Shown here piece after piece: positions 12,883 to 63,940 of a DNA stretch of 64,000 bases. The number at the start of each line of letters is the position of its first letter. Position 1 is the stretch's first letter. The DNA comes from an uncultured delta proteobacterium. GTDB taxonomy: Bacteria > Desulfobacterota > RBG-13-43-22. The stretch is from assembly GCA_963743305.1 (NCBI GenBank), contig CAVUPH010000013.1, positions 192,001 to 256,000 on the forward strand, read 5' to 3'. The translations under genes and the position numbers were made by a program. Under the pieces are notes generated by a model. The model made no database searches. It saw only the letters and a program-made list of their open reading frames with translations, and was not told the origin of the DNA.

Positions 12883-14924
12883 TCAATTCCTTTGAATCAA
12901 TGGTAGATACAAATTAGTGGTTGGTATTCCCCATATCCGTATCCGTATCGAGTCGGCAAAGCCGTCCTGTGGTCGTCGATAAACGGTGATGCTGTTGGTG
13001 GTCAGTGATCGCCAATAGGCGCCTACGCGGTCATCGGCGTTGTACCCCGCAGACGGCTGGGTTCCAAAATCCGCGCCGCCGAAGTAACGCTGGTTCAAAC
13101 CATTACCAGGATTGGAGTCCAAATAGTTCATATCCACCAAGTAATTTTCGAACGGCCCACCGAGATTATGGGTCAGGCTTTGGGCCGTATCCACGGCGAA
13201 GGCCACCCACCCGCTGTCGTAATCGGGCTTGGCCAGGCGCCAGATGCGGACGCGCACCTGCTCGGCATAGATGTCTTCCGGTCTCCGGTAGACGGTAATG
13301 CTTGTCGAAGTTAAAGACCTCCAGTATGCCCCTACCCGGTCATCTGCGCTCATGCCGGCGGGGGGCTGGGTCCCGAAATCAGCGCCGCCGTAATGGCGAT
13401 GGTTGACCCCGTTCCCGGCCGATCTCTGCTGCATATCCACCAAGTATTCGGCGGGGTCCCCCCCAGATCATGGGCGAGGGCGGTGGACGCATCTTTCGCC
13501 AGGGCTGTCCACCCCGAATCATAATCCGGTTTGGGCATGGACCAGATCCGAATCCGCGTCTGTTCGGCATAGGTATCCTCCGCGCGGCGAAAAACAGAAA
13601 TGCTGGCATTGGTCAAGCTGCGCCAATAAGCGCCGACCCGGTCATTGGCATTATGCCCCGGAGCCGGATTGGTCCCGAAATCGGCGCCTCCGTAATAACG
13701 ATTGTTCACCCCGTCGGCAGCACTGCCTTTGTACTGCATGTCCACCAAATAACTATTGGCATCCCCGCCGATAGTGTGCGATAGGACGGTGGCATCGCTT
13801 CCGGCAGTTATATTAACCCAGCCGCTGTCGTAGGTCGGCGACGGGATTCTCCAGGCGTTGAAAATGCGCATTCGGATCTGGGGAGCGTTAATATCCTCCG
13901 GTCGGCGATAAACGGTTACCGTTGAGTCGGTAAGGGTTCGCCAATAAGCCCCGGAACGGTCTTCGCTGCCGGTCAGGTCCATTCCTCCGTAATGGCGTTG
14001 ATTGACCCCGTAGGCGCCTGATTGAAATTGCATATCGACTATATAGTCATCAGGGTTGCCTCCGATGGCATGACTGAGGTCGATGGCCTGGTCCTGATTT
14101 ATCGCAATCCAGCCGCTGTCATACGTGGCCTTCGGCCTCTTCCAGATTCGAATACGGACTTCTTCTGCATAACTGTCATCGGCCCGACGATATACCCGCA
14201 TAGTGGTATTGTTCAGTACGTACCAATAGGCCCCAACCTGGGTATTGGGCGCGCCGGCTTTGGCCCCAAAATCGATGCCTCCGTAATACCTTTGGTTCAC
14301 CCCGCTGCCGGCGCTTCTAAATTGCATATCCACCACATAATTATCACGGTTTCCAAGAAGATTGTGGGTGACCAGTGGCGCTGGTCCGCCGGCGGCCAGT
14401 GCAATCCAACCGGAGTCATAATCCGGGGCAGCATCCACCCAAATACGGACCCTAACCTGTTCGGCAAAAGTATCTTCTGGCCGGCGATAAACAGTGATGG
14501 TGGATGTGGTCAAGGAGCGCCAGTAAGCGCCCACTCGGTCATCAGGATTTCCCAGAGTAACTTGCGTACCGAAATCATTCCCTCCATAATACCGCTGATT
14601 AATCCCGTTCCCGGCGTTTTTGAATTGCAGGTCCACGACGTAGGAGCCAGAGTTGCCGCCCAAGTTATGGGTCAGTACTTTGGCTTCATCCCGGGTAATG
14701 GTAACCCAACCGCTGTCGTACGAGGCCCCGCCGTTGTAGGCGCCTTTCAAGTTGGCCGGGTTTGCCGAAAGTTGAGGATTTGCTGCAGGGAGGGAAGAAG
14801 AATTTTTGTAGACATTTTGATCGGCTGGCTGGTACTCCGAACCAAATGAAGCGTTCCAACCGAAAACCAAAGCCAGTAATAAAGCCACTGTTAAAAAACC
14901 GAAAATAAATGATTTTTTTTGCAT
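12883..14924 (-). CDS. Secreted protein with six ~100-aa YDSGW repeats and C-terminal LYLPLIQR motif (one frameshift at about 13460)
   Basis: ORFs 13350-14966 and 12883-13443 join through a G-run (restores HDLGGDPAEYLVDM); signal peptide MQKKSFIFGF. Confidence 0.8.
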
Positions 14925-14971
14925 GGCCTGTCCTCCGGAAAGAAATTTCAAAAAGGATGAGGGCAAGAAAT

Positions 14972-14992
14972 GGGAGGGGATAAACCCCTCCC
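14972..14992. repeat. Short REP-like hairpin
   Basis: GGGAGGGG-ataaa-CCCCTCCC between two minus-strand genes. Confidence 0.55.
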
Positions 14993-15006
14993 CGAAGGCC
15001 GTTGGA

Positions 15007-15576
15007 TTAATTATTTTGGATTATAGGCAAGGCCACCGCCCCGAAAGGAGGAATGTAATGGATTCGGGCCCCGCATAATCTTGAGGTATTGGCCGCTTGG
15101 GGCTGCCATGTCAGTTCATAAAAGCATTTTGAATCGACGGTACAGTCTGTTTCCACGGTAATATTCAATTCGGCGGTAGGAAGTTTGAGTCTTCCAATAA
15201 TCCCTACCAGGGGTATTGCGGCAAGGGTTGTGCTGGTATTGGCAAAGGGGTCGTATTTTAATAAAGCGAGTGTACTAAATGGCGGCGTGAGCGGAAAGAC
15301 TAGTGGGGTAAATTCAAAAAAATAAAATTCCAGGCGTTTGATCAGAGAGCCCCTCGGTAATAGGACAGGAAAGCTGAAACCATCAAGCCCCCCAGTGTTC
15401 CAAATACAACCCTCACCACTGTTATAACTCTGGGTTGAACTCGTAGGAGTAAAAGAGGATCCGAGGACATTCAGATATTGTGTGGGAGGTTGGGCAGAAA
15501 CGACGGGTGTGAGTAATAGGGTTAATAGGAAAAAGATTCCAAAAAGTTGAGTGATAGACCGATAGTTTTTCTTCAT
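15007..15576 (-). CDS. Secreted hypothetical protein, C-terminal VALPIIQNN
   Basis: GGAGG RBS; signal peptide ending VSA. Confidence 0.7.
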   Translation of the reverse strand: MKKNYRSITQLFGIFFLLTLLLTPVVSAQPPTQYLNVLGSSFTPTSSTQSYNSGEGCIWNTGGLDGFSFPVLLPRGSLIKRLEFYFFEFTPLVFPLTPPFSTLALLKYDPFANTSTTLAAIPLVGIIGRLKLPTAELNITVETDCTVDSKCFYELTWQPQAANTSRLCGARIHYIPPFGAVALPIIQNN

Positions 15577-15816
15577 CACTTTTTCCTCCATTTCTAAAAG
15601 GTTTCTATTAAATCCTACCTTCCTACTATGAAGTCTTTTAGTTGGCGCTGCTCTTACCACCCAAATTCCCCTATTTACTACAAATAAAAAGGTATAAAGT
15701 CAACGGGAAAAAGGAGGCAGAGGACCATATCCTATTGGCTAGAGATCAAGACCGAAACTACCATGGACAAAGTCAAGACAGGATTAAAATCCGATTATTA
15801 CTTCCCGGAAAAATGG

Positions 15817-16947
15817 TTAAAACAGTCGATCCATCCGGAAATACTGCAATAAGCCGATAAAGGCCGAGGAACTCAACGGGTCCCCCTTCATCCCGAACAG
15901 GTGCCCCGGGCAGGCGCAATCCGAGGCGCCGAAGCCGATAATATCCCAGTCGGCGATGGCCCGCATCCGTTCGGCTATCTGACATTCCAGATCTTCCGAG
16001 GAACGGACCGGCAGGGCGGCGATGTATTCCGTTTCCTCCCGCAGGTAATCGATATGCCAAAAATTGTTTTTCCTCAAGCGGCGATGTCTTTCCATTCGCT
16101 GGGTCAGATTTTTCATGGCCGAGCCGACATAGACGTAGTAACCGGCCGGGAACGTTTGCCGATTTTCCCGGCGGCCGAATTCCAGATTCCTTTTGCGGTT
16201 GAGCTTCAGAATCAGCAGGTAGCTTCCCCGGTCCCGAGCCTCCCTATGAATCAGCTCCCAGGGGATTTCCAATCGCTTGACCCGTTCGCCGAGAGAAAAA
16301 TCCGGTTTCCACTCCACCGCCAGCGCGATGATTTCCACCCGGTTTCGACAGGCCAGAAAGGTTTGGGCGAAAAACAGATCCGTGTGATAATCGGGGAGGA
16401 AGAAATCCGCCTTCAGCCAGTGGACGATGAACAGTACGGCGGTCTTCCGTCCGCGGTCGCTCAATTCGGTCAATTCCCGCAAATGCCGGGTCCCACGCTC
16501 CGTGACCGCGTCCGGGAACATGGCTGTTCTCTCCCCGAACAGCGTGCAGGACTTCACCTCGACCAGCCATTCATTTTTCCGGCGTTCCACCAGGAGATCG
16601 AAACGGGAATGATCGATGCGAATCTCCCGGCCGATCACCCGGGCCCCTTCCCAGCCGGGGACCTTTCCTTGATCGATCAAGTGGCCGGCCACCTCGTTGG
16701 TCCGGTGGGTGTGGAGGAAGATCGGAACCCCCTCCCGTTCCACCGCCAACACGGTAAAGGCGTTTTTTCGGGTAGGGGAGGGCGGTTCTTTGGCAATATA
16801 CACGGTGACCCCCGGCAACAGGAGCTCCTGGAGCCGACCGGGATTGGGCAGAAAGGCCTGGATGATACTTGCCCCCAGGCGGCAGCGGATTAGAAAACGG
16901 TTAGGCCGGTCGATGAATTGGGCTGGTAGAGGAGTGGCGGGGGGCAT
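15817..16947 (-). CDS. sfsA: SfsA nuclease fused to a DUF123/GIY-YIG domain
   Basis: RPNRF, LPNPGRL, SRFDL, VEVKSCTL, FPDAVTERGTRHL; C-terminal YVYVGSA, WHIDYL, GFGASDC. Confidence 0.9.
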   Translation of the reverse strand: MPPATPLPAQFIDRPNRFLIRCRLGASIIQAFLPNPGRLQELLLPGVTVYIAKEPPSPTRKNAFTVLAVEREGVPIFLHTHRTNEVAGHLIDQGKVPGWEGARVIGREIRIDHSRFDLLVERRKNEWLVEVKSCTLFGERTAMFPDAVTERGTRHLRELTELSDRGRKTAVLFIVHWLKADFFLPDYHTDLFFAQTFLACRNRVEIIALAVEWKPDFSLGERVKRLEIPWELIHREARDRGSYLLILKLNRKRNLEFGRRENRQTFPAGYYVYVGSAMKNLTQRMERHRRLRKNNFWHIDYLREETEYIAALPVRSSEDLECQIAERMRAIADWDIIGFGASDCACPGHLFGMKGDPLSSSAFIGLLQYFRMDRLF

Positions 16948-16980
16948 CGGACGGATCTATCGGATCGGACCGATCAGTCC
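16945..16980. repeat. Degenerate copy of the 40-bp palindrome spanning the gene junction
   Basis: CATCGGACGGATCTATCGGATCGGACCGATCAGTCC shares its first 13 nt with 17309-17348. Confidence 0.7.
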
Positions 16981-17753
16981 AGGGGAAGGGTTCCCCGGCA
17001 ATTCGGGTAACCTGAACAGCCTAAAAATTGGGAACCGGCCTGTTTACCCTGTCGGGCGGTACGCACCACCAGGGATTTGCCGCAAAGCGGGCAAAGGGGA
17101 AGGTTTTTCTTCGGCCGATCTTGCCGCCGTCTTTCCTCGATCCGCGCCGCCGCCAGACGTTCGCTATAGCCGCCATCCCGAATGAACTGCCGCTCCAGTC
17201 CGGCGATCTGCCGGTCCAGCAGGTAGTTGGTCTGGTGGATCAGGCAAATGACGGCGTTGGCGATCACTCCCGGGTCGCTGTGCTTGAGCCATGGGGAGTA
17301 TAGGGCTTCATCGGACGGATCGGTCGGATCCGACCGATCCGTCCGATGCCTCTTCCCTACCTCACGGACCGTTATCGCCTCCGGATCATCCTTCCCCCAT
17401 TGCTCCAGACTGCGCTGTCGCAGGAAATCTTCGTAATCTAGTAAGAGCTCATCCAGGCTGGCCCGGGCGACATTTACCAGGCGCAGTTCGGTCTGGGTCG
17501 AGGTCGCCGAGGCGCGGCTGCCTTCTGCAATATTCTGCCTTCCGCTACGAGCGGCCTGCACCATCTGGTCGACCGTGCGCGAGCGCTTATCCAGAAAACG
17601 GGCGCAAAACGACACCGTGGCGTCATAGATTAGCGTTGCGGCTTGGAAGGAACGCAATTGGCGATAGCCGCCGCTGGGGCGTATCCTATTAGAATTAGAA
17701 ATTACGCGGGACTTGTCGAACCCGTTCTTTTGTGTTGGCCTATCCATTTTCAA
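16974..17753 (-). CDS. Four-helix-bundle protein with suffix domain and topoisomerase-type C4 zinc finger
   Basis: GGYRQLRSFQ, DQMVQAARSGRQNIAEG, ARASLDELLLDYEDFL, FIRDGGYSERL, CPLCG...FLGCSGYPNC. Confidence 0.88.
   Translation of the reverse strand: MKMDRPTQKNGFDKSRVISNSNRIRPSGGYRQLRSFQAATLIYDATVSFCARFLDKRSRTVDQMVQAARSGRQNIAEGSRASATSTQTELRLVNVARASLDELLLDYEDFLRQRSLEQWGKDDPEAITVREVGKRHRTDRSDPTDPSDEALYSPWLKHSDPGVIANAVICLIHQTNYLLDRQIAGLERQFIRDGGYSERLAAARIEERRRQDRPKKNLPLCPLCGKSLVVRTARQGKQAGSQFLGCSGYPNCRGTLPLD
17309..17348. repeat. Perfect 40-bp palindrome inside a CDS
   Basis: CATCGGACGGATCGGTCGGATCCGACCGATCCGTCCGATG equals its own reverse complement. Confidence 0.95.
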
Positions 17754-17757
17754 AATC

Positions 17758-18080
17758 CTACTTGGACTTGGGGACCATCTTGACGGTCTTCAAAATAGGG
17801 CAGCAACAGCAGCTATTTGATAATTTCTGTGTATTCGAGGGCGAAAGTACCAGGCCCGTCTCCTCCGCCAGATCGAGAACGCCCAGGGCCTCCTCGACGC
17901 TAATTTGCCGGCCCCATTTATTGTCTATATGGAAAAGTGCAAATTGGCCGAAACCCAGGCAGGTCTCTATAGGCCGATCACAATCCTTTCCTTCAGCCCG
18001 ATCCCGCTGGGAGTCGCTGGAAATCCGGTCGGCAGGGTATCCAGGAAAATCCTGAGCCTTTCATAAATATCTTTACTCAT
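17758..18080 (-). pseudogene. Internally deleted remnant of a 4Fe-4S protein (paralogue of 36454-37530)
   Basis: MSKDIYERLRIFLDTLPTGFP joined out of frame to GKDCDRPIETCLGFG...GRQISVEEALGVLDLAEETGLVLSPSN. Confidence 0.8.
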
Positions 18081-18846
18081 TATATCTTTCTTCCAAAAAT
18101 TCCAAAATGGCCCGGTTGACTTCTTCGGGCTTTTCAATCGGCGCCAGGTGGCCGGCTTCCGGAATAGTAACCCAGCGGGACCCGGGGATATGTTCCGCCA
18201 AGTACTTCCCGTATTTCGGTGGAGTAAGCAGGTCATCTTCACCCGAGATTACTAAAACCTTGGCCTTGATTTCAGGGAGGCGCTCCCGTATGTCGAAACG
18301 GTCGCAGGCCTGAAAATCCCCGAAAGCCACCGCCGGGAGGCATTTGAGATTGTCCTCCAGGATCGGTTGAATGAGCGCCGGGTCGGTTTTGGGAGAAACG
18401 GCGAACTGTTTACTCGAGGCGACGAAAGACGGAAAATCTTTTTGAATGGACTCAAAGATCAGCGGCCTAACTTTCAGTTTGGCGCCCGTGCAAAGAAGCA
18501 TCCCGGCCGAAAAGTACTCCGGATAGTCCAAAAGAAGCTGCAAGGTGATGGCGCCGCCCAGACTCAATCCGGAGGGGATCGGCCCCGGAACTCTTAAATG
18601 GTTTAGAAAGTCTCTGACGGCCTCGGTATAATCGGTTACGGTTGTGGAGCCGCTTCCCGGACTTCGTCCATGCCCAGGCAGATCCAGGGCCAACACGTTA
18701 ACCCGTTCCCTCAGCCCCTTCATTTGATTGTCCCAAAGGACGTTGGAACCCCCGGAACCATGAATAAAAACCAGCGTTGATTTTTGGGGATCCAACGGCC
18801 ATGCGCCGGCCTTAAAGGCCAGGTCCGCTTCGAAACGATATTCCAT
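18073..18846 (-). CDS. Alpha/beta hydrolase
   Basis: FIHGSGG, DLPGHG, GLSLGG nucleophile elbow, GEDD, AGH. Confidence 0.9.
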   Translation of the reverse strand: MEYRFEADLAFKAGAWPLDPQKSTLVFIHGSGGSNVLWDNQMKGLRERVNVLALDLPGHGRSPGSGSTTVTDYTEAVRDFLNHLRVPGPIPSGLSLGGAITLQLLLDYPEYFSAGMLLCTGAKLKVRPLIFESIQKDFPSFVASSKQFAVSPKTDPALIQPILEDNLKCLPAVAFGDFQACDRFDIRERLPEIKAKVLVISGEDDLLTPPKYGKYLAEHIPGSRWVTIPEAGHLAPIEKPEEVNRAILEFLEERYNE

Positions 18847-18872
18847 AATTTACCTGTTCGGGCCCTAGCGGG

Positions 18873-19400
18873 TCAGGGTTTAGGAATGATAACCGGCTGA
18901 TTGGATTCCAGCCTTTGCTGAAACTCTTTCCAAAAAGATTCATCCGCTTTCTGCCAGCCGGCCCCGAAACGGGTGTTGAAAAATCCTCCCAACTTTTCAA
19001 AAAGGCGTTTCCAACCGGGGGCTGATTCGTAGCGGAGCACGTCTTCCAGGAAGGGGACAATTTCACTGAGTTTTTCCTTGGGCACATAGGCCCGGGCGCC
19101 CATTTCGATGGAACGCTTTATGGCTTCGGGAGACAAGGCATGGGCGGTAAGCATAGCCACTGGAAATTTCCGGCTCACGGCCGTTTGAAGCAGATCAAAG
19201 CCCCGGACACCCATGATGTCCAGGACCACCAGATCATAGGTGTAGGATAGCAGATGGTCGATGGCCGATTCATAGGTGCTCGCCTGATGGAGGTTGCAGC
19301 CCCCACAGACTTCCGTGATCTCTTCTTGTAAAACCTCTAAAACGTCCGGTTCATCATCCACCGTCAAAATCATTTTCCCTTTTAAAATCGATTCTTGCAT
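18873..19400 (-). CDS. Response regulator (receiver domain with short aromatic C-terminal tail)
   Basis: VDDEPD, VVLDIMGVRG, MLTAHA, YVPK. Confidence 0.9.
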   Translation of the reverse strand: MQESILKGKMILTVDDEPDVLEVLQEEITEVCGGCNLHQASTYESAIDHLLSYTYDLVVLDIMGVRGFDLLQTAVSRKFPVAMLTAHALSPEAIKRSIEMGARAYVPKEKLSEIVPFLEDVLRYESAPGWKRLFEKLGGFFNTRFGAGWQKADESFWKEFQQRLESNQPVIIPKP

Positions 19401-19573
19401 TGGAATATCCTTTGGTCGTGTTTAATTTGTATAAAAAATCCTTTTGCACTTTTAATCGCTCATTATAATGCTCATCTCCTATCCGGACAACTGGAAAAGT
19501 GTGAACACGAATTTATCCGGCGAACGGAGTTGCTTTGTGGTATAATCGCCTCAGAAAAAATAGAGAGGTCGTT

Positions 19574-19933
19574 ATGGAATGCGCACGTTGTCAAGACCCC
19601 ATCGAATCCGGGGAGGAGAGGGAATACGCCGGCCGGGTCCTCTGTGAAGACTGCTACATGGATGCCCTGTCGCCGGCCAAGACTTGCGATCCCTGGGCGG
19701 TGCACAGCGCCAAATCATTTGCCCAGGCCGGGGGGGCCGCACCGGTCCTCAGTCCCTTGCAAAAACAAATTGTGGAATACTTACAGGAGACCGGCGGCGT
19801 TGAACCTCGGCAGATTTCCGAACGGTTTCAGATCAAGCCGGCCGACCTGGAGCGGGAAATCGCCTCCTTGCGGCATATGGAGAAGATCCGGGGAGAGCTG
19901 CGGGAAGGGCGGAAGATCATCAAGCCCTGGTAG
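19574..19933 (+). CDS. Small Zn-finger (CxxC...CxxC) plus wHTH-like hypothetical protein
   Basis: CARC...LCEDC, CDPWAV, helical C-terminus; GAGG RBS. Confidence 0.65.
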   Translation: MECARCQDPIESGEEREYAGRVLCEDCYMDALSPAKTCDPWAVHSAKSFAQAGGAAPVLSPLQKQIVEYLQETGGVEPRQISERFQIKPADLEREIASLRHMEKIRGELREGRKIIKPW

Positions 19934-20828
19934 CTAATTTTTGGGCCAGGTGGCGCACCCGGGCCTCCAGGTTGATTCGGTAGGCCGGCTCCGGCTGTTT
20001 GGGTTCAGGCCGGGAGTCATATTCGTCGGCTTTGATCCGTTCGACTACCCGCCGGATATCCCCGTCCTCCCTGGTCAGCAGATCAACTACTTGATTTTTG
20101 AATTGAGGAGCCGTCCGGAGCGACCGTTTAAAATAATCCGCCACCTCCGACCCGGTGTAAACCAGGCGGTGGCCTTGGCAAAGAGTGTCCACCTCGAGGG
20201 CCGCCAGCCGGGTCAGGGATTTTAAATAGACCTCATAGTCCACTAAAAACTCGGTGACCACATACCCCGTGGTATCGGCGCAGCCCACCGCTTCGGAAGC
20301 AATCAGGATCTTTCGTTCCGGGATGTAGTAGCTCAGAAAATCCCAGGTATGCCCTGGCGTGGCCATCACCTGGACGGAAAGCCCCGGCCCCAGTTCTATC
20401 CGTTCTCCATCCACCAGGACCCGATCCACCTCGAAGGGCTGAAAGGGTTCGCCCAGGCGCAGTTCCGGTTTCCAGCGGTTGACCGTGTCCGCCGCCGAAT
20501 CATTTAAGTCGGCCATCAGCTTCCGGGCGTTAGGGCGGCGGACAATCTCGGCCGCCCGTTGGGAAGCGGCAATGAGCAACCCGGGGAAGGCTTTTTTTAG
20601 ATAAGCCGCGGCCCCGCAGTGGTCGAAGTGGACATGGGTCAGAAAAAGGATTTCCGGGTTTCTGTTCCCCAGGGTTGCTTTGACGGCCCGTTCATAAAGA
20701 GGGCCGAAGACGCTGAAACCGGCGTCGAACAGAACCGGCCGGTCGCCGTCCAGGAGATAGGTAGGGACCTCGCTGGCCCCGATGACGTAAAAACCCGGGA
20801 CAACCTCACCGGTCGTGTCGATAATCAA
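19920..20828 (-). CDS. MBL-fold metallo-hydrolase
   Basis: THVHFDHCG, TPGHT, QGH. Confidence 0.9.
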   Translation of the reverse strand: MIIDTTGEVVPGFYVIGASEVPTYLLDGDRPVLFDAGFSVFGPLYERAVKATLGNRNPEILFLTHVHFDHCGAAAYLKKAFPGLLIAASQRAAEIVRRPNARKLMADLNDSAADTVNRWKPELRLGEPFQPFEVDRVLVDGERIELGPGLSVQVMATPGHTWDFLSYYIPERKILIASEAVGCADTTGYVVTEFLVDYEVYLKSLTRLAALEVDTLCQGHRLVYTGSEVADYFKRSLRTAPQFKNQVVDLLTREDGDIRRVVERIKADEYDSRPEPKQPEPAYRINLEARVRHLAQKLATRA

Positions 20829-20911
20829 GAAAAGCCTTTCTTAGGTTAAAACAGATAGGCACCTGTTCGTCTCGGTAGTCGCGCTCTGCGCCCAGCGCTT
20901 CGCGCTTCGCG

Positions 20912-21404: not shown

Positions 21405-21414
21405 AGCGGACCTC

Positions 21415-23182: not shown

Positions 23183-23185
23183 ATT

Positions 23186-23342: not shown

Positions 23343-23353
23343 TAATTTGCTTT

Positions 23354-24706: not shown

Positions 24707-24757
24707 AAGCAAAAGCTAAAAATGGAAAAATACCCGAAAAACAATTGAGTAAAGCCC

Positions 24758-28767: not shown

Positions 28768-29754
28768 TTAGTCTGCCACCACGGGAAAATATATCTTAAA
28801 CCCTTCTGAAGCGATCCCGTCCAGCGCATCCGTCGTTCCAGAAAGTTGCGTCGTCCAGGTTATCCCGGTAGGGGAAGTCTTGATGATACCCAGATCCCCT
28901 ACGGCCACGAAAAGGTTTTTTTGAAAGGTTACCCCAAACAAGTCATTCAGCGTTCCGGAGTTTTGCCCGACCCAAGTGGCGCCATCGGAAGAAGTCAGGA
29001 TGGTTCCGTTGGCTCCTACGGCCACGATTTGATCCTTCTGGGAAGCTACTCCCCATAAAAAGCTATTGGTCCCCGACGTCTGGGGAGTCCAGATCTGACC
29101 ATCGGGCGAGGTCACTATGGTCCCCTGGTCTCCAACAACGACAATCTTTCCACTGCCAAAGGTGACCGCGGACAGGAACTCCACGGTATTCGAGGTTTGA
29201 AGGGTCCAGGTCACCCCATCGGAGGAGGTTAGAATGGTTCCGTTGTTTCCCACGGCCACAAAAAGGCCATTGGCAGACCCGACTCCGAAAAGGGCAGAAG
29301 TGGTCCCCGAGGTCTGCGAAGCCCAGGTCACCGCATCCGGGGAGGTTAAGACGGTTCCGGTCCCCAGGAAATAGTTAAAACCCACTGCCACAAAAATTCC
29401 ATTTCCATAGGTTATCCCAAATAAGGTGCTGTCGGGATCGCCGGAATTCTGGGGGGTCCACGTGATCCCATCCTCGGAAGTTACTATGGTCCCCAGGTCT
29501 CCAACGGCCACGAATTTTCCTTCTCCTCGGGTTACCCGCCATAGTTTTTGTGCGGCATTGGAGGTCCTATCGATCCAGACCTCTCCCGTGTCGGAGGTGA
29601 TAATCTTCGCCGGGTCTGCGGCCGCGTCATCTTCGATCGCTACCAAAAAGGCGGCCTGAACGGGTTCCCGGAGGACAAAGGAACCCAGCAACAGGATCCC
29701 GAGCCAGACCACAAAGGTCTGCCAGCCAAATCTTCTGATGTTTCTCTTAACCAT
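28768..29754 (-). CDS. Secreted beta-propeller protein with TSxDGxTW (BNR-like) repeats, C-terminal KIYFPVVAD
   Basis: Six FVAVG..GTI.TS.DG.TW repeats; signal peptide; GGAGG RBS. Confidence 0.85.
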   Translation of the reverse strand: MVKRNIRRFGWQTFVVWLGILLLGSFVLREPVQAAFLVAIEDDAAADPAKIITSDTGEVWIDRTSNAAQKLWRVTRGEGKFVAVGDLGTIVTSEDGITWTPQNSGDPDSTLFGITYGNGIFVAVGFNYFLGTGTVLTSPDAVTWASQTSGTTSALFGVGSANGLFVAVGNNGTILTSSDGVTWTLQTSNTVEFLSAVTFGSGKIVVVGDQGTIVTSPDGQIWTPQTSGTNSFLWGVASQKDQIVAVGANGTILTSSDGATWVGQNSGTLNDLFGVTFQKNLFVAVGDLGIIKTSPTGITWTTQLSGTTDALDGIASEGFKIYFPVVAD

Positions 29755-53082: not shown

Positions 53083-53092
53083 ATCCGGTCCC

Positions 53093-56000: not shown

Positions 56001-56233
56001 TGGTCATCGTGCCCCGCTTATTGGCCGGACTGGGATTAAGCCCGGGCGCCCCGCCGCTGGGAAAAGTCTGGGAGGATTCCGGGCTGTTCATTCCCGAGGA
56101 AATAGCCGGGAATCATTTTCACAATATCTTTACCGGGGAAACCGCTCAGGTGGTGGAACGGGAAGGAAGAAGGACCCTGCCCCTCGAAAAGGTCTTCGCC
56201 GTTTTCCCCCTGGCCCTGCTGACCTCCTTCTGA
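53093..56233 (+). CDS. treY: Malto-oligosyltrehalose synthase
   Basis: STYRLQF, HGYD, DIVPNHM, INYRRFFDI, RVDHPDGL, STHDTKRSEDVRAR. Confidence 0.95.
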   Translation: MEKELPQSPETMKEVFQSVVDHLSDFRRLPVSTYRLQFNHRFTFSQAKRVTPYLHELGISDVYASPCFLARKGSLHGYDILDHNRLNPEIGTEVEYQEWVKELEKYGMGQIQDIVPNHMCITGTENNWWQDVLENGPGSLYADYFDIDWKPIKNELADRVLLPILGDQYGRVLDNQALVLTFEAGAFFIAYADQKLPLNPISYARILKLDLEALTHKMGAEHPDIQELLSIITALEHLPPQSEKNQEKVLERRREKEIIKKRISALSEGNKSFGSFIDQNVRACNGQMGISTSFDFLDGLLNDQAYRLSHWRVATEEINYRRFFDINELSGLRVERLPVFLETHKLIFKLIREGKVSGLRVDHPDGLYNPAEYFYRLQRACFIQSGLRMAEQVITKADQPSWNDEELGKELGRWYDEQINKDPAFSLRSAFYVIGEKILIKNERMPEDWPIFGSVGYDFLNSANGIFVDTEKAKVFEAVYGRFVGSPMNFSELVYEKKKLIMQVAMSAEINMLGHTLERLAEKNRYTRDFTLNSLKTAIVEVIACFPVYRTYVNHCQVLERDRHYIEQAVARARRRNPALSALIFDFLERILLFRYPDEFGEEGKMEWLNFAMRFQQFTGPIMAKGLEDTVFYVYNRLISLNEVGGHPENFGTSLEAFHGRNIEKTKSWTYSLNASSTHDTKRSEDVRARINVLSEMPNEWKNCLIRWGRLNKKKKILIDGQWAPDPNEEYFLYQTLLGAWPLPPEHKPDRPFIERVASSLLKTLPIHPEDETDPAIFVRRIKEYMVKAIREAKIHSSWISPDSAYEEAVLHFIDGLLSSPPDNAFLKDFETFQKDIAYWGMLNSLFQTLLKIASPGIPDFYQGTELWDFSLADPDNRRPVDFKTRQELLKKLKKQVVTGRKDLTGLVEELLRNWKDGRIKLFVIFQALTYRQENRFLFAEGFYLPLKAEGKLNKNICAFARQKEGNTVLVIVPRLLAGLGLSPGAPPLGKVWEDSGLFIPEEIAGNHFHNIFTGETAQVVEREGRRTLPLEKVFAVFPLALLTSF

Positions 56234-56267
56234 GGTTTCCATCGACTGGTCTGGAAAAAGGAGCGAA

Positions 56268-56957
56268 ATGAAAATGAATCCAAAAAGAGCCGAAAACCCC
56301 TTTGCTTTTACCGGCTGCTGGGAGCTGAAAGGCATGCTGGGCCGTACGGCCTGGGATGAACGACAGCTACTGGAAATCATCGAGGAGATCCCCCTCGACT
56401 CCGTCTATTATCACACCCACAGTTTTTTCCTCCGCCACCAATATATTGCCGGCCCCTATCCCAACGATTTTGCCACCTGGGCGGCGATTCAGCTCCGGGA
56501 CCACGCCCTGGGAGAAAAACTGGGAATTCTCGATCCTTTCGATTATGACAATCTGGAATCCCTGAGAGCCGAGATCGTCAATATTGTCGATAATCATTTG
56601 TCCCGGTTGCCGATTATCCCCCGAATCATTTACGGTGAACCTTTTTATTTCATGCAATCGCGGATCATTACCCTCCCCACGGGACTGGAAGCCCATGATC
56701 TGGCTGAATTCTGCAAAATCTTATCCTCGACCGATTCCAGTGTGGTCTACTTTCATACCTTCGAGGCTATGCTGCGTCTCGGACGCCGGGAAGGCGACTT
56801 CCCCCTTTGGATCAAAAGCCAATTAGGGGAGACCGAATTGGCCTCGGCCATTTCCCGGCTTGATTTGTATATGTCTAACCTCGAATTCATTCGAAAGCAG
56901 ATCATCACCCTGTGCGGTACCGTCCTGGAAAAGGAGGGAATGAATGAACCGTCTTGA
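56268..56957 (+). CDS. DUF5752 family protein
   Basis: Duplicated SVYYH / SVVYFH and NDFATW / GDFPLW motifs; adjacent to treT. Confidence 0.8.
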   Translation: MKMNPKRAENPFAFTGCWELKGMLGRTAWDERQLLEIIEEIPLDSVYYHTHSFFLRHQYIAGPYPNDFATWAAIQLRDHALGEKLGILDPFDYDNLESLRAEIVNIVDNHLSRLPIIPRIIYGEPFYFMQSRIITLPTGLEAHDLAEFCKILSSTDSSVVYFHTFEAMLRLGRREGDFPLWIKSQLGETELASAISRLDLYMSNLEFIRKQIITLCGTVLEKEGMNEPS

Positions 56958-58149
56958 GGACTATAAAGAAGTGGTCCCCAAAGGGACCGTGGAGTTCCTG
57001 ATGCTTCTGGCTGAAAAAGTCCAGGGGAAAAAAATTCTGGAAATCAATTCCACTCGGGTGGGCGGAGGGGTGGCCGAGATTCTCCGCAGCCTGGTGCCCC
57101 TGTTTCGAGAGATCGGCCTGGAGTGCCGCTGGGAGGTCATCTCCGGGACCGAGGAATTCTTCAATGTGACCAAATCGTTTCACAATGCCCTCCAGGGCTG
57201 GGAGCAAAACATCTCTCCCCAGATGCTCCAGACCTATCTGGAGATCAATCGGGAGAATGCCGTCCGTCTTTCCTGTGACGCGGATTATGTGGTCATCCAT
57301 GACCCCCAGCCTGCGGCCCTGATCGATAACCGGCCAGCGGCGGGCAAATGGATCTGGCGCTGCCATATCGATATTTCCCGCCCCCAGTCGAAGGTCTGGA
57401 ATTTTTTACGACAATTCGTCGTCAAATACGACACGGCCATTTTCTCTTTGCCCAGCTTTGCCCGCAAACTGCCTATCCCCCAGTTTCTCATTTATCCTTC
57501 CATTGATCCTTTGAGCGAAAAAAACCGGGAACTTGATCCTGAGGAACAGGCCCAACTCCTGCAAAAAATGGGCATCTTGCTGGATAAACCCATCCTGTTG
57601 CAGGTCTCCCGTTTTGACCGGTTCAAGGACCCCTTGGGGGTGATTCAGGCCTACCGGCTGGTGAAGAAACATCATGATGTGCGATTGATCCTGGCCGGGG
57701 GGAGCGCCACGGATGACCCCGAAGGAGAGATGGTTCTCTCGGAGGTTCGGGAAGCCGCCCGGAATGATCCGGATATTCTGATTCTTTTACTGCCTCCGGA
57801 TGCCCATCTGGAGATCAATGCCCTGCAGCGGGCGGCGACGATTGTCCTGCAGAAGTCATTGCGCGAAGGGTTTGGTCTGACGGTGACTGAGGCCATGTGG
57901 AAGGGCAAGCCGGTTATCGGCGGTTTTGCCGGCGGGATCACGGTCCAGCTCGTTTACGGCGTCACCGGATTCACGGTCTATTCCGTAGAGGGGGCCGCTC
58001 TTCGCATCCATTACCTATTGGACAATCCCGAATTAATGACCAGGATAGGCCAGGATGCCAGGGAATATGTGCGACGGAATTTTTTGATTACCCGCAATTT
58101 AGGTAATTATCTGGCCCTGATGGCTTATCTGGACCAGCAATCCATGTAA
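56944..58149 (+). CDS. treT: GT4 trehalose synthase (TreT-like)
   Basis: NSTRVGGGVAEIL, FHNALQG, IHDPQP, WRCHID, SRFDRFKD, EGFGLTVTEA. Confidence 0.88.
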   Translation: MNRLEDYKEVVPKGTVEFLMLLAEKVQGKKILEINSTRVGGGVAEILRSLVPLFREIGLECRWEVISGTEEFFNVTKSFHNALQGWEQNISPQMLQTYLEINRENAVRLSCDADYVVIHDPQPAALIDNRPAAGKWIWRCHIDISRPQSKVWNFLRQFVVKYDTAIFSLPSFARKLPIPQFLIYPSIDPLSEKNRELDPEEQAQLLQKMGILLDKPILLQVSRFDRFKDPLGVIQAYRLVKKHHDVRLILAGGSATDDPEGEMVLSEVREAARNDPDILILLLPPDAHLEINALQRAATIVLQKSLREGFGLTVTEAMWKGKPVIGGFAGGITVQLVYGVTGFTVYSVEGAALRIHYLLDNPELMTRIGQDAREYVRRNFLITRNLGNYLALMAYLDQQSM

Positions 58150-58334
58150 CCGGGATCCTTTTTCATCGGCGCCTGCGGGGACCGGTCTCGATGAGACCTC
58201 CAAGGGTCCGGGGGCACCTAAGCAACCACCCGACCAGGTCCCGGCCTGTGCGGAAAACACCTGAGGCTGGAAAACCGGTCCGGTCGGGCCGCGAGCCGGG
58301 ATGGCTTTCAAATGGGAAGATTGATTCTGACTGA

Positions 58335-58733
58335 TTATTCCAAATTATTTGTCTTAAAAGCTGTGGTATCAGAATAATAAAGTATGGTGCCGTTCCAGCC
58401 CACGGCGAAGACATCGTTTCCAGAACTCCCCCAGATGCCATAAAGGTTTTCAGTTGTTCCGCTGGTCATGGGGGACCAGGCGCTGCCGTTGTAATGGAGG
58501 ATGGTGCCGTACCCGCTCACAGCGAAGACATTTGTTCCTGAATTTCCCCAAATACCTCTCAAGGAATTCCCTTGGGGTAATGGATTTTGCCACTTCCATT
58601 CCCCGCCCGCTGGTGGAATAGTATGGCTATCTTTGAGGATCAACGGGAGGTACACCGGGGAGTCGCCTTGTACGATAGAATCAGAAAAAGGCGCCAGGAT
58701 TAAAAATAGGAGAAAGAAGACCTTCTTTTTCAT
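58335..58733 (-). CDS. Short secreted protein: N-terminal VYLPLILK motif plus WGSS.NDVFAVG repeats (probably truncated)
   Basis: Signal peptide, WKWQNPLPQGN, only 2 propeller blades. Confidence 0.7.
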   Translation of the reverse strand: MKKKVFFLLFLILAPFSDSIVQGDSPVYLPLILKDSHTIPPAGGEWKWQNPLPQGNSLRGIWGNSGTNVFAVSGYGTILHYNGSAWSPMTSGTTENLYGIWGSSGNDVFAVGWNGTILYYSDTTAFKTNNLE

Positions 58734-58979
58734 TATTCTCCCCCATGCAAAACCTAATCAATGGTTAGACAAGAATTTCTAATAATAAGATGAGGGGAAG
58801 TATAAAATAAGCCAAATGAAGGGGCAAGTAGAAAAAATAAGAGGAGGGGAAAACGGCTCTTAACAGCCAATGATCACGTCGCCCTGGCCTGCAGCACACG
58901 GTGCTGTGGCGGTGGAGCACGGCGACATCTTTTCTAGGGGGAAGGGAACGGAATGGTGGCCGTTCCCTTCCCTGTCATG

Positions 58980-61185
58980 TCAGCGGAGCAGCAGCGGCAA
59001 GTACAGCAGATTGCGGAGGTCGAGCGCGATAGCCCAGGGGTCGCCCAAAGACCCATTCAAGTTGCCGAGATCAACGCCACCCGACCCGTCCAGGTTGGCC
59101 CGCACGATCTTGCGGTTCAGGCGGCTGGTGATATACATCTGGTCATGGGCTAAGTCCAGTGCGATGCCAACAGGGTTACTGAGGAAACCGCCCGGGTTGC
59201 CGAGGTCGGTGCCACCCGACCCGTCCAGGTTGGCCCGCACGATCTTCTGGTTGCCGGAACTCGCGATATACATTTTGCCGCCCGTCAAGTCGAGCGCGAG
59301 ATAATTGGGTTCGTTGAGGAAACCGCCGGGGTTGCCGAGGTCGGTGGCGCCCGTGCCGTCCAGATTGGCCCGCACGATCTTGTGGTTCGCACGGCTGACG
59401 ATATACATCTGGTTATGGGCCAAGTCCAGCGCGATGCCGATCGGGTTGAGGAGGAAACCGCCGGGGTTGCCGAGGTCGACGGCGCCCGACCCGTCCAGAT
59501 TCGCCCGCACGATCTTGTGGTTAAAAAAGTTTGCCACATACATCTTGCCGCCTGCCAGGTCGAGGGCCACGTCTGCGGGAAGATTCAGAAATCCACCCGG
59601 GTTGCCGAGGTCGGTTGGGCTGCTGCCGTCCAGGTTGACCTGTACGATCTTGTGGTTGATAGAGCTCGCCACATACATCCTGCCGTTCGCCAGATCCAGC
59701 GTGACGCCGGCCGGCTCATTGAGCAAGCCGCCAGGATTTCCCAAGCTGGCGCCGTTGGTGCCGTCCAGGTTAGCCCGGCTTAGGTTGCCTCCTATGGTAA
59801 GGTTGGTGACGTACAGCTGACGCCCGTAGATCGGCACATTGACGCTGACGGTATTGGTGCAATCGTTGTTGCTTTCGTTGCTCTCGGCTACCCGGTTGTC
59901 GGGGTCGGCGCGGCAGACGCCGCCGGTCGGATTAATCAGTGTCCCCGTCGCATTCGGCCTAACGTTGAACAACACGTCGAACCTGCCGGAAGAGGCGTTT
60001 AAGGTGACGGTTCCACCGGTTCGGTGCAGGTGAGCTCATTGGCGGCAAGGCTGCAATGGATGTTTCCGCTGTTGGTGACATTGTTGGTGCTTGTCACTGT
60101 TGGCGTGCCATAGGTCGCTCCGGCGGGCAGGTTGTCCCGCACCAGTACCTGGCCGCTGAAAAAGGACGCGGGCGCAGTGCCGGTGTTGACCACCAGGAGC
60201 GTCCAGTTGAAATCGCCGCCGCTGGGCAGGCCGCCGCCGATAGTGTTCGTCATGGTCGCTTTAGGTCCGGTGCCAGGTCCAGTGCGATGCCAACTGGGGC
60301 ATTGAGGAATCCGCCCGGGTTGCCAAGGTCGGTCCCGCCCGTCCCATTCAGGTTCGCCCGCACAATGCGATTAGTGTTCGTGACATACATCTTGCCATTT
60401 GCCAGGTCGAGGGCAATGCCGCGAGAGTTGTTGAGGAATCCGCCGGGGTTGCCGAGATCCTGTGGGCTGCTGCCGTCCAAGTTCGCCCGCACGATCTTCT
60501 GGTTACCAATACTTGTGACATACATTTTGCCGTTTGGGAGGTCCAGCGCGATGGCATATGGGCTATTGAGGAATCCGCCGAGGTTGCCGAGGTCCTGCGG
60601 GTCGCTGCCGTCCAGGTTCGCCCGCGCGATCTTGTTGTCAGAGAAGTTCACGACATACATTTTGCCATTGGCGAGGTCCAGTGCGATGCCAACTGGGCTA
60701 CTGAAGAATCCGCCGGGGTTGCCGAGGTCCTGCGGGCTGCTGCCGTCCAGGTTCGCCCGCACGATCTTTTTATTTCCTAAGCTGGTCACATACATCTTGC
60801 CGCCTGCCGAGGTCCAGCGCGATACCAACCGGGCTACTGAGGAATCCGCCAAGATTGCCGAGGTCCTGCGGGCTACTGCCGTCCAGGTTCGCCCGCACGA
60901 TCTTGCTGCCAGTAGCTCACCACATACATCTTGCCGCCTGCCAGGTCCAGCGCGATGCCTTGAGCATCAGAGAGTAGGCCGCCCGGGTTGCCGAGATCGG
61001 TGCCCCCCGCGCCGGTCAAGTCCGCGCGGATGATCTTGCTGTTATTGAAATTTGCAATATACATCTGGGCGGCAAAAAGAGGCGTCACCGATGCGATCCA
61101 GGCGAGGAACGCCAAGGCGGTCAGCAGGGTAATCCGGAGCTTTCCGCAGGCCCGGAAGAGTTAGAAAAGCATTCGATGTGATCAT
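58980..61185 (-). CDS. Secreted protein with two six-bladed LY/YWTD-like propellers around a DUF11/CARDB-like Ig domain; C-terminal LYLPLLLR; several frameshifts
   Basis: 12 x ~43-aa GIALD..GKMYV....KIVRANLDGS repeats; ADPDNRVAESNESNN; GGAGG RBS at 61185. Confidence 0.8.
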
Positions 61186-61263
61186 GGGGATCCTCCCTTC
61201 GGAATAACTGGTTGGGTTATCTGTTCACCCGAGGCCTCTTAAAACATCCTATCCCACTCCAGG

Positions 61264-62526
61264 TCACGGCCGAAGGAGGAGGGGCAGGAAAATGGAGTAC
61301 TGGGCGCCAAGCTCCCCGCCCCGCACGGGCCAGGCATAGTAGCGAGCGTTGAATTTGTCTCCGGAGTTGACCGCGCCGGTAAGCAGGTCATAAGCATGGG
61401 CGGAGCGGGTATTGGATAGAAGCGACGTGGAGGACCAGAGGAAGCGATTCGCCGGGTCCGGATCGATATCGGTAAAGGGATGGCCCGCGGGGAGGGCCGG
61501 ATCATGGGCCTGGTGATCGGTCAGGCTTTGCAGTTCCACTACGTTTGGCAGGCGCCAGTCCTGGCGGCCCAAATAGTGTTCCTGGTTCAGGCATTGGACG
61601 TACGCCAGGGCCTGGCTCCAGCTTTTCGTTTCCTGGGGCTGGCAGGCTTGAGGGCCCGGGGTTCCTACCCGGCGGGTCCAGCTCAACCCGGTGAGCCGAT
61701 CCAGGACCTCTTCGCCGCTCACCGGCGAGCCCCCATCCGGATTGACAAACCGGGGATCCGGCCAGGCAACCCCGCTTCTCAATTCCCCGTCCTGACCCGT
61801 GCCGGGGCAGTCAATCGGGTAATAGGGCGATACCCAATAATAGCATTGGGTTTGTCCCGTAAGGGGCAGGGAAACAACCCCATTTCCCCCCGGAACCGCA
61901 CCCCCGCCCCGAACCGGCCAGACCACCGAGTCTTGATCCGCGCCTTTAATAGTGTGATTCAGGGGCAGGAGGTAATAGGGAAGGCCGTAAAAGACCTTAT
62001 CGGGACTTTTTACGTTGGTGGTCGAGGACCAGATTTTAGAATAGGGATTGAAAATAAAACCAAATGTTTCCAGCCACTGGTCATCCCGGATCTGGCCGTC
62101 ATGGTGCAGGCTGGCCAGTTCGACCGTATTCGGCATCCTCCAGTCATCGTGATTCAGGTAGCGGGTATCGTTCAAGCACTTGACATATTCGTGAGCCGGG
62201 CCCCAGTCCTTCGACCCCCCCGTGCAAAACCCCCGGGCCGGCGAGGTAACGTCCTTGGCCCAGACGAGTCCGGTGAGCCGGTCCAGGATTTCCTCCCCGC
62301 TGATGGGCAGGGTGCCGTCCGGATTGGTAAAACGCGGATTGGGCCAGGCCGCTCCGGTCCGGTATTCTCCATCCTGCCCGGAATTCCGGCATTCAACCTG
62401 GTACCCCCAAACCCCGTCAAAACAGTTTACCTGCCCGGTCTTAGGCAGGCGGATCTCGGCCGCCTGACCTTCCAGGGCCAGGATGACTGTTAACAATAGG
62501 AACGGAAACAAAATTTTCTTGTTCAT
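61264..62526 (-). CDS. Tandem DUF1566 (Lcl-type) secreted protein, C-terminal IFLPLLLRP
   Basis: 2 x LP.TGQ..C, GQDGE, DRLTGL.W, DWR.PN..EL, WSST, WPVRGG. Confidence 0.88.
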   Translation of the reverse strand: MNKKILFPFLLLTVILALEGQAAEIRLPKTGQVNCFDGVWGYQVECRNSGQDGEYRTGAAWPNPRFTNPDGTLPISGEEILDRLTGLVWAKDVTSPARGFCTGGSKDWGPAHEYVKCLNDTRYLNHDDWRMPNTVELASLHHDGQIRDDQWLETFGFIFNPYSKIWSSTTNVKSPDKVFYGLPYYLLPLNHTIKGADQDSVVWPVRGGGAVPGGNGVVSLPLTGQTQCYYWVSPYYPIDCPGTGQDGELRSGVAWPDPRFVNPDGGSPVSGEEVLDRLTGLSWTRRVGTPGPQACQPQETKSWSQALAYVQCLNQEHYLGRQDWRLPNVVELQSLTDHQAHDPALPAGHPFTDIDPDPANRFLWSSTSLLSNTRSAHAYDLLTGAVNSGDKFNARYYAWPVRGGELGAQYSIFLPLLLRP

Positions 62527-62533
62527 GGAAATT

Positions 62534-63940
62534 CTACCGCACGTGCGCAGCGGGTGTCGTCGGGTTGTTTCCTGGCCGCGCACCGCTGGAGAAACCTGTG
62601 CAACTAAATACATGCGTCTTTGCCCCCCCCGGGAAATACAGCGTTTCATCCACAGTGCCGCAGATGGTCGCGGGATGATAGGAATAGGTTCCCGCGGGGA
62701 AGCTTCCATAAAAAGTAGAGCCGCCGCCAAGGTACTTCGGACCTAGGCCCGTGCCGTAAACCTCGTAGTACATTTGACCCCCCGTTTCGTTTTCTATATA
62801 CAGGGTACAAATCGCTGGCAGCGGTGACCAGGTATTCATGATCATCGGAAGGTAGAGTTTTTTTTCAAGGATGGGTGCACCCAAAACAAGGTCCAACAGT
62901 GCACTGGTACTGCCTATGGTCAGGTTCTTGGTTCCGCTGGCGCTGCCGGTGAAGGTCACCGAGTAAGTTCCAGGCGCCATGGTTACCGGGATGGCGTACC
63001 CGCCGCTGGCGGAGGTCACCGCGTAATAGGTGCCGGCATTCGGGGTAACGGTCACTCCTCCAATCCCCTCGCCGGGGTCGTACTGACTATTGCCGTTCAA
63101 ATCGCGCCAGACGGTCCCCACGATGAATTGGTTGTAGTGGTCGGCATAGGAAGTGATCGCTTTGCAGTAGTTGCCGGTGGTCACATAGGGGCCGACACTC
63201 GTGCCGGGGTTGTTCTCATAGACCAGTGCCACCCCTACGTTGGTATAGTTGTTGGGGTCCAAGGACATGATCGCCTGACGGTGGCCACGGCCGGTCTGCA
63301 TACCGTCCGCCGTGCCACTCCCCCAGTCGATGTTCCAGGCCGCGTGGGCATTCAGGCTGCTGTCGGCGTAAGCAAAGACATTGCCGCGGACGGCTTGCCA
63401 CTTAAAGCCGGCAGTATTGATGCGATCAAACTGCCCGGTGTGATCCTGAGCATCACGGGCGATCAGGTCATCCGAATGCGCCTTGGCCGCGTTGTACAAG
63501 CGCACGTCGAAGGCCGCGGGCGGCTTGGCGGAATAGCCGTTAAACTCATTCTGCAGCACCGTCGTATTGACGACAAACCAATTCCGGCCGTCGGCGATGT
63601 CCGGGTCAGTCGAGGTAGCCAGCCAGACGCCCTCCGCCGACGGGTTGGCCCGCGCCCGGTTCATCAACCACATCACCTGCTGCTCCCGGCCATCCGGGTG
63701 AGCGCCATCGGCGGTTTTATGGAGTGTCCACTCCACCGTGGGAGCGCCGAGCGATGGGTAGATCGGCGCCGGCAGACTAAGGATTTGCGCCGGGTCGAGT
63801 GTCATTGCCGGAGGATTTTCCGCCGGGCTCCGCGGCGGGTTACTCTCCTGACCGGAAGCGGTTTGGGTCCCTAAGAACGAAAAAGCAACAAGAACGACAA
63901 AGCAAAAACCGATTCGGAGGATTTTCTCAAGCTTGGACAT
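62534..63940 (-). CDS. Secreted CAP (SCP) domain protein with Ig domain and internal LYLPMIMN motif
   Basis: LMNRARANP, AAKAHSDD, GHRQAIM, VWRDLNGNSQYDPGEG, TSASGGY. Confidence 0.85.
   Translation of the reverse strand: MSKLEKILRIGFCFVVLVAFSFLGTQTASGQESNPPRSPAENPPAMTLDPAQILSLPAPIYPSLGAPTVEWTLHKTADGAHPDGREQQVMWLMNRARANPSAEGVWLATSTDPDIADGRNWFVVNTTVLQNEFNGYSAKPPAAFDVRLYNAAKAHSDDLIARDAQDHTGQFDRINTAGFKWQAVRGNVFAYADSSLNAHAAWNIDWGSGTADGMQTGRGHRQAIMSLDPNNYTNVGVALVYENNPGTSVGPYVTTGNYCKAITSYADHYNQFIVGTVWRDLNGNSQYDPGEGIGGVTVTPNAGTYYAVTSASGGYAIPVTMAPGTYSVTFTGSASGTKNLTIGSTSALLDLVLGAPILEKKLYLPMIMNTWSPLPAICTLYIENETGGQMYYEVYGTGLGPKYLGGGSTFYGSFPAGTYSYHPATICGTVDETLYFPGGAKTHVFSCTGFSSGARPGNNPTTPAAHVR

Follow-up and report, generated by a model that had tools for sequence, protein, structure and literature searches.

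The subject of this analysis is a short peptide that recurs on secreted proteins in a 64,000-nucleotide stretch of DNA (the window), which corresponds to positions 192001-256000 of contig C13 in the genome assembly (4.9 Mb, 43 contigs) of an uncultured delta proteobacterium. An earlier note, made from the letters of the window, had described a shared LYLP-type peptide on seven unrelated secreted proteins and had proposed an uncharacterised export or surface-docking system. Translation of the seven open reading frames (ORFs) reproduces every peptide that was quoted, five of them at the C-terminus, one after a signal peptide and one internal. The peptides are instances of the YLP-box, a linear motif of 8-10 residues with the form h-[YF(A)]-[LF]-P-h-h-h-[KRN]-x, in which h is hydrophobic. 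This tag is already catalogued, yet without explanation, and what we describe is a further instance of it in a new kind of host, where we tentatively read it as a docking tag.

All seven sites lie on the minus strand. The first belongs to a secreted protein of about seven novel repeats of ~95 amino acids (12883..14924), a single gene that now falls into two frames (ORFs 13350-14966 and 12883-13443). The gene that starts at 14924 has its frame-shifted end in ORF 12883-13443, and the same repeat runs across the shift near 13350-13443. The signal peptide of this protein is MQKKSFIFGFLTVALLLALVFG, no Pfam or NCBIfam family matches it, and it ends in the tail NLYLPLIQRN (12886-12915). At 15007..15576 there is a 189-residue secreted protein of no known family whose tail, AVALPIIQNN (15010-15039), is an Ala-for-Tyr variant of the tag and has no NCBIfam match. 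This protein has 22 full-length homologues (51-100% identical), and every one finishes in A[VLM]A[LM]P[LIVS][IV]xx[ND], with A180, A182 and P184 invariant; the clusters nearest to it in the Atlas are most often from Chloroflexota, a lead towards gene transfer rather than a test of it. The third carrier is, by profile search, a secreted beta-propeller of the DUF6242 / PF25852 type (28768..29754), and its tail KIYFPVVAD (28771-28797), with an acidic end, is the weakest variant of the set.

The remaining four sites are found between 58335 and 63958. The 132-residue propeller fragment at 58335..58733 is a stump relative to a 613-residue orthologue in a sister species. It carries PVYLPLILKD (58629-58658) three residues past the predicted end of the signal peptide, and the orthologue keeps ..GNSLLYLPSILKD after its own signal peptide and has no C-terminal tag. 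At 58980..61115 the gene of an NHL-repeat / CARDB-like surface protein is split into four frames, the last piece of which (ORF 58980-59975) ends in LLYLPLLLR (58983-59009); the gene is intact in the sister species, where it encodes 734 amino acids with a signal peptide and the end ..YLMFLPLLLR. A 420-residue secreted protein with two Lcl_C (DUF1566) domains (61264..62526; PF07603, E = 1.9e-44) ends in SIFLPLLLRP (61267-61296), and has a paralogue with an identical tail on contig C30. The seventh carrier, a secreted CAP / SdrD_B-like protein by profile search (62534..63958), holds the internal copy, KLYLPMIMN (62834-62860), which is followed by an extension of 101 codons. Its sister-species orthologue (384 residues) stops at ..NRVYLPLVVR, and the DNA similarity ends at the motif. 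The extension has no paralogue, and its coding score of 0.01 per codon lies below the 5th percentile of genuine C-termini (0.13). With a C-terminal tail in the orthologue and a doubtful extension behind the motif here, this copy is weak evidence for an internal position.

A signal peptide is present at the start of all seven genes or of their intact orthologues, in line with the Sec signals described before, and no membrane helix follows any of the seven motif sites in the translations. The folds of the carriers differ: the ~95-residue novel repeats, the 189-residue protein without a family, the DUF6242/PF25852 propeller, the NHL propeller, the double Lcl_C protein, the CAP/SdrD_B protein and the short propeller fragment. 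The picture of seven unrelated proteins needs adjusting in two respects. While the seven sites are real, several of the ORFs are fragments (12883-13443, 58980-59975 and 58335-58733), and while many folds do carry the tag, the proteins at 28768 and 58335 share one propeller superfamily.

Single frame shifts split many genes that have intact orthologues or paralogues, including those for the repeat and NHL proteins of the window, several histidine kinases, a beta-lactamase and some small proteins made of repeats. Such split genes are found at 12883-14966 and 58980-61115 of the window and, elsewhere in this genome (G000), at C14:26547-28130, C1:15596-18198, C7:120137-121307, C11:43323-44154 and C14:30656-31517. 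These look like assembly indel errors rather than widespread pseudogenes. A purine-rich intergenic stretch of 40 bases (58800-58840) was checked and set aside; it has matches in several relatives, and this genome holds it only once.

Two NCBIfam models cover the peptide, NF053834 'ultrashort_CTERM' (10 positions, cut-off 10 bits) and NF050076 'sort_motif_YLP' (11 positions, cut-off 15 bits). With pieces of 30 amino acids, NF053834 scores 15.5, 13.0 and 12.5 bits on three of the seven window sites (NLYLPLIQRN, KLYLPMIMN and PVYLPLILKD, respectively) and NF050076 scores 14.1, 13.5 and 13.4 bits, its cut-off being reached at none of the seven; neither model is listed for the other four. We then scanned 51 of the 59 distinct tails of the genome, excluding a near-duplicate and seven likely chance matches. 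NF053834 reaches its cut-off in 11 of these 51 and NF050076 in three, with either model listed for 16 and neither for 35. When whole proteins were used, none of eight was matched by the NCBIfam YLP models at E <= 0.1. The NCBIfam description of both models says only 'YLP-box putative sorting motif-containing protein', and literature searches on YLP-box, YLP motif and YLPL C-terminal Chloroflexi found no relevant paper. A similar terminal peptide, VYLPLVxR, is said to be common on extracellular proteins of Chloroflexota. The suggestion of an uncharacterised system thus holds for the machinery, of which we found none, and does not hold for the tag itself, which NF053834 and NF050076 already model.

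The genome-wide counts are based on a crude gene call of 4532 ORFs for the whole genome, and the gene and signal-peptide calls were both made with home-made heuristics. The strict motif, [LIVMF][YF][LF]P[LIMV][ILVM], has 61 matches in the genome, of which 30 are at most six residues from the stop, 10 are in the first 60 residues and 21 are elsewhere. A codon pattern for the tail (ar-L-P-h-h-h-[KR..]-x-stop, where ar is aromatic) gave 23 matches against 3 in a backwards control, and simpler codon patterns gave 18-19 against 1-3 in codon-block shuffles. A position-specific scoring matrix (PSSM) found 34 C-terminal matches against 0 in shuffles, a count that is circular because the matrix was trained on C-terminal copies, along with 11 against 3-4 at the N-terminus and 26 against 10-14 at internal positions. 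About 40 convincing tails (53 loose matches) are spread over 19 of the 43 contigs. They are independent of fold, with carriers from at least 10 Pfam families, including M23 peptidase, purple acid phosphatase, BNR, Lcl_C, fn3, DUF11/SdrD_B, NHL, RCC1, TIG and C1 peptidases. Judged by the crude signal-peptide rule, export is predicted for 19 of 37 tail proteins and for 584 of all 4532 ORFs (odds ratio 7.3, p = 1.7e-8), so the expected enrichment on exported proteins is present. A lipobox occurs in 1 of 22 tagged and 47 of 562 other exported proteins, which is no difference. Since the copies of the motif use different synonymous codons, selection acts on the peptide and not on a DNA repeat.

A sizeable minority of the copies sits right behind a signal peptide or at a domain junction and not at the C-terminus. 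Five of the seven window sites and 30 of the 61 strict matches stand at the C-terminus, and others are conserved after signal peptides or at domain junctions. In a family of 19 sequences composed of a signal peptide, the YLP-box and a jelly-roll domain (46% mean column identity), the motif begins 1-2 residues past the AxS cleavage site, and L39 and P40 are invariant. The N-terminal copy on the window's small propeller (58335) is, as described above, kept in the sister species. This propeller is homologous to C-terminally tagged propellers, so that one superfamily, to which the 28768 protein also belongs, bears the tag at either end. An identical type of jelly-roll domain follows the motif in the signal peptide-YLP-domain proteins and in two proteins of the arrangement I42, peptidase C1, YLP-box, domain. 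Two tandem secreted papain-family (C1) peptidases at C12:86646-91229 have this order, beginning with an N-terminal chagasin-type (I42) inhibitor; the built-in inhibitor may be a prodomain. The junction of C1 peptidase, YLP-box and jelly-roll is conserved in genera g1 and g2. In an AlphaFold2 model the motif and its linker have a predicted local distance difference test score (pLDDT) below 50, compared to 80-94 for the adjoining domain, which suggests that the motif is not part of a fold. The earlier claim that the position of the peptide is free is thus only partly supported: it has the conserved sites after signal peptides and at junctions, and loses the internal site near 62850, which corresponds to the C-terminal tail of the orthologue.

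The host is of the deltaproteobacterial kind that had been suspected, a bacterium of the sulfate-reducer type. RpoB of the genome is 55-69% identical to proteins of delta-type bacteria and falls in a six-row Thermodesulfobacteriota clade with a support of 99 (FastTree, 67 rows; 14 loci shorter than 1200 amino acids or with stops were left out). An outer membrane is present, because the genome encodes BamA and TamA, both of them Omp85 proteins, with TamB behind TamA, as well as two secretins. The Chloroflexota host that had been associated with the YLP-box does not apply here, as the RpoB clade shows, and this feature may reflect the limits of observations so far rather than a defining trait. 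The assembly is 90% complete, with a CheckM-type contamination of 5.71%. Tetranucleotide correlations (r) to the genome are 0.95-0.998 for all 43 contigs and 0.998 for C13, the contig of the window, and the 19 tail-bearing contigs sum to 2.8 of the 4.9 Mb, with the 16S contig among them. In sister species, the housekeeping genes of the window have orthologues at 79% and 68% DNA identity and its tagged genes at 83% and 71%, and three other species of the same genus hold orthologous tagged genes at 71-83% DNA identity. Given the tetranucleotide correlation of the contig, the spread of the tails and the orthologues in the sister species, a check of contig taxonomy gave no sign of a chimera.

The spread of the tag in the phylum is patchy. 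Among 301 genomes sampled, only genus g1 stands out, with 23 against 3 and 12 against 3 matches of the codon pattern and its control, and the tag is prominent in no genome sampled from the 97 other families. A mild excess of the pattern in five other genomes of the phylum was traced to T-rich chance matches. Genus g3 has many typical tails, genus g2 has kept junction and N-terminal copies, and genus g4 is near the control level, with a C1-peptidase orthologue that does not have the motif. One YLP-tailed homologue of the 28768 propeller is named as coming from a Desulfobacteraceae metagenome-assembled genome.

Comparing the homologues of the 28768 propeller gives an indication of what the tag may do. 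Among the 120 best of them, 14 have a YLP-box and 34 a ..RFYRAxxP tail at the same place; the other 72 include a few with C-terminal domains of the type IX secretion system (T9SS) kind, along with truncated proteins and proteins that have no recognised tail. Swapping at the same place is typical of sorting and anchoring signals, which argues for such a role of the tag. The T9SS is alike in occupying this place on homologous propellers and in having an outer-membrane host, but its signal is a folded domain of ~80-100 amino acids that is removed by PorU, whereas the YLP-box has 8-10 residues and no peptidase of the PorU type (Peptidase_C25, PF01364) was found in any of the seven genomes of genera g1-g3 (G000-G005 and G007). 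The 34 of 120 homologues with the ..RFYRAxxP tail (within P0024-P0116) end in ..[RQ][RH]FYR[AV]xxP-COOH after a loosely conserved stretch of ~25 residues, and three such tails had no NCBIfam match at E <= 10. This end may belong to a further C-terminal tag without a model, or be the closing strand of a domain.

The reading that we tentatively prefer, though with somewhat less than even confidence, is that the YLP-box is an uncleaved, position-tolerant docking or retention tag that is read in trans. The tag would be flexible and exposed: after Sec export it would hang free at one end of the mature protein, at the very C-terminus or right behind the signal-peptide cleavage site, or would sit in an interdomain linker. 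A partner in the envelope would then bind it in trans, probably without cleavage, and a variety of enzymes and adhesins could be kept at the cell surface in this way. That the tag directs localisation, that its reader is a protein and that it is not cleaved are the parts of this reading that we infer. Because both ends of the mature protein tolerate the tag, a classical cleaved C-terminal anchor is argued against. An analogy, and no more than that, is offered by the peroxisomal targeting signals PTS1 (C-terminal) and PTS2 (N-terminal), which are also very short and linear, lie at one or the other end of their cargo and are recognised by soluble receptors with no need for cleavage. They occur in eukaryotes, consist of two motifs with a receptor each and are unrelated in sequence to the YLP-box, which is a single motif at both ends.

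There are several points that count against a docking tag. By the crude rule 18 of the 37 tail proteins have no signal peptide; gene fragments and unusual starts account for several of these, and a few are simply spurious matches (e.g. a histidine kinase). Exposure of the motif is not proven by the low pLDDT. That Tyr/Phe-Leu-Pro is so strictly conserved would suit the recognition site of an enzyme as well as a receptor, and the NCBI name ultrashort_CTERM, together with a basic residue after three hydrophobic ones, would fit a miniature cleaved tripartite signal. The final location of the tagged proteins at the surface is likewise something the docking reading presumes. Finally, no partner emerged: among genes at most 3-4 positions away from tail genes no family is convincingly enriched (best uncorrected p = 0.0013, for substrates or TPR look-alikes), and a GT-C/TPR protein 2 bp after a tail gene was rejected, as the sister species has no full-length copy of it.

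Other candidates for a reader fared no better. Four candidate families, namely the GT-C/TPR protein, Peptidase_C1, Peptidase_C25 and SLH, were compared across 41 relatives without yielding a reader. Clusters of neighbours were rejected as machinery, being generic PAS histidine kinases, ATP-binding cassette (ABC) ATPases, TPR proteins or further substrates, and a Pfam scan of 140 of the 234 island genes found no recurring sortase-like or unknown membrane enzyme. Peptidase_C1 was rejected as a reader, since it is present in tag-poor genomes too and has weak scores in genus g3. Anchoring of the SLH type to an S-layer, which had been one possibility for the tag, has no support, with SLH (PF00395) in none of the 21 family genomes and in one of the 41 relatives. 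A complex prediction for a signal peptide-YLP-jelly-roll protein and a YLP-tailed fn3 protein gave a score of 0.01 and a mark of 0.32, which is evidence in neither direction.

The first alternative is that the YLP-box is a cleaved sorting or processing signal, either a tripartite signal in miniature or the site of a peptidase or transpeptidase, with the N-terminal and junction copies being propeptide or polyprotein cleavage sites. The likeness to PEP-CTERM/exosortase and LPXTG/sortase is real, as all of these are short Pro-containing C-terminal signatures on Sec-exported proteins followed by hydrophobic and then basic residues; the name given by NCBI and the location of most copies at the extreme C-terminus (30 of 61) agree with it. 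PEP-CTERM and LPXTG, however, have a membrane helix of ~20 residues, as opposed to three hydrophobic residues in the YLP-box, which would leave nothing to keep the substrate at a membrane enzyme, and unlike them the YLP-box also persists at N-termini. The genome (90% complete) has 0 matches to sortase (PF04203) and 0 to exosortase (PF09721), in agreement with the earlier distinction from these systems, and the C25 peptidase was not found either. The motif of the 19-member family begins 1-2 residues past the signal-peptidase site, so cutting there would remove almost nothing. The junction copies between C1 peptidase and jelly-roll do resemble the processed polyprotein of Lys-gingipain with its 'cleaved adhesin'. 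The best fold matches of the jelly-roll model are gingipain 'cleaved adhesin' domains (PDB 4itc, 3km5, 3m1h; E = 7e-6, template modelling score 0.49), MAM domains and carbohydrate-binding modules (CBMs), with a weak match to choice-of-anchor J, and the gingipains, too, place a jelly-roll adhesin/CBM-like domain behind a cysteine peptidase. But the peptidase is C25 there and of the papain family C1 here, the sequence identity is only 14-15%, and C1 peptidases do not follow the distribution of the tag. We regard cleavage as unlikely, although it is the best of the alternatives to a docking tag.

A second alternative, which we find somewhat less likely again, is a self-sufficient interfacial anchor, in which the aromatic residue, five hydrophobic residues and Lys/Arg would insert into a lipid or lipopolysaccharide (LPS) surface. 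Since no protein partner would be needed, this would account for the absence of a found machinery gene, co-occurring or neighbouring, and for function in different types of envelope, an outer-membrane bacterium here and reportedly Chloroflexota. The PSSM, with Tyr/Phe and Lys/Arg flanking a short hydrophobic run, would also suit a membrane interface. On the other hand, the invariant Pro, the near-invariant Leu and the Ala-Leu-Pro in all 22 members of the family of the 189-residue protein exceed what plain insertion needs, and six hydrophobic residues partition weakly, as is generally known from interfacial hydrophobicity scales.

It is more improbable still that the peptide has nothing to do with localisation and is recognised by periplasmic chaperones, quality control or the secretion route, affecting folding, turnover or passage of the outer membrane. 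SurA-type aromatic/proline peptides, tail-specific proteases and a hand-over through the type II secretion system (T2SS) or the translocation and assembly module (TAM) would be examples. Tagged proteins, if they are surface proteins, need a route across the outer membrane; two secretins and TamA/TamB are available, and one tail gene lies directly after tamA-tamB. This adjacency is a single case, though, and such factors are near-universal, yet the tag is prominent only in genus g1 among the 301 sampled genomes (and is also seen in g2 and g3). Moreover, the tag is said to occur in Chloroflexota lineages that probably have no outer membrane. An artefact, whether a chance hydrophobic peptide, a DNA repeat or misbinned Chloroflexota contigs, for which one could point to the contamination of 5.71% and the many frame-shifted genes, is refuted as far as our tools reach by the control counts (23 against 3 and 34 against 0), the varying synonymous codons, the 19 contigs with their tetranucleotide correlations and 16S gene, and the orthologous tagged genes in three other species, and its chance is negligible.

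Compared to the NCBIfam YLP-box as catalogued, the tag described here is the same peptide on exported proteins of many folds with no membrane helix, but the host is Thermodesulfobacteriota-like with an outer membrane, and a minority of the copies comes after a signal peptide or at junctions. The tag thus functions, or at least persists under selection, in an outer-membrane bacterium outside Chloroflexota, in a genome that yielded no sortase, exosortase, PorU-type peptidase or SLH anchor on which it could depend. A bolder form of the docking reading, which we consider doubtful, is that the YLP-box is the address label of an envelope-independent surface-docking system that crossed phyla, with a receptor or adaptor binding it uncleaved at either end, both in Chloroflexota and in an outer-membrane genus of Thermodesulfobacteriota. 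Dozens of exported enzymes and adhesins per genome carry the YLP-box, in abundant and mostly uncultured bacteria, without a known reader. If a docking tag is what it is, a genus with tag-rich and tag-poor sister genera would give a comparative handle for finding that reader. The patchy spread within one family offers profiling a cleaner contrast than Chloroflexota does, in which the tag is reputedly widespread.

Several other loci of the genome may be useful when looking at individual carriers. At C14:about 287000-294980 (locus L088) TamA (Omp85), TamB and a YLP-tailed NHL protein (..ALYLPLLRR) are encoded consecutively and in the same direction, the tagged gene lying 19 bases from tamB. At C1:10051-15129 (locus L091) a set of minor pilins (GspH-like, two N_methyl and PilX_N) is followed by a TIG protein ending in ILYLPIIMRN, which could be a pilus-associated adhesin with the tag. 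The sole PEP-CTERM-type protein of the genome, at C23:39399-40041, ends in ..VPEPATLLLLGFGLVGLAGVRRKFRS, and the PF09721 search gave no exosortase to go with it. In three places (C21:58192-59309, C14:30656-31517 and C11:43323-44154) an Lcl_C gene is followed by the gene of a small secreted protein with 'AWxxNxGWIxF' repeats and a YLP tail; the C21 copy of the small protein is intact, and the C14 and C11 copies are frame-shifted.

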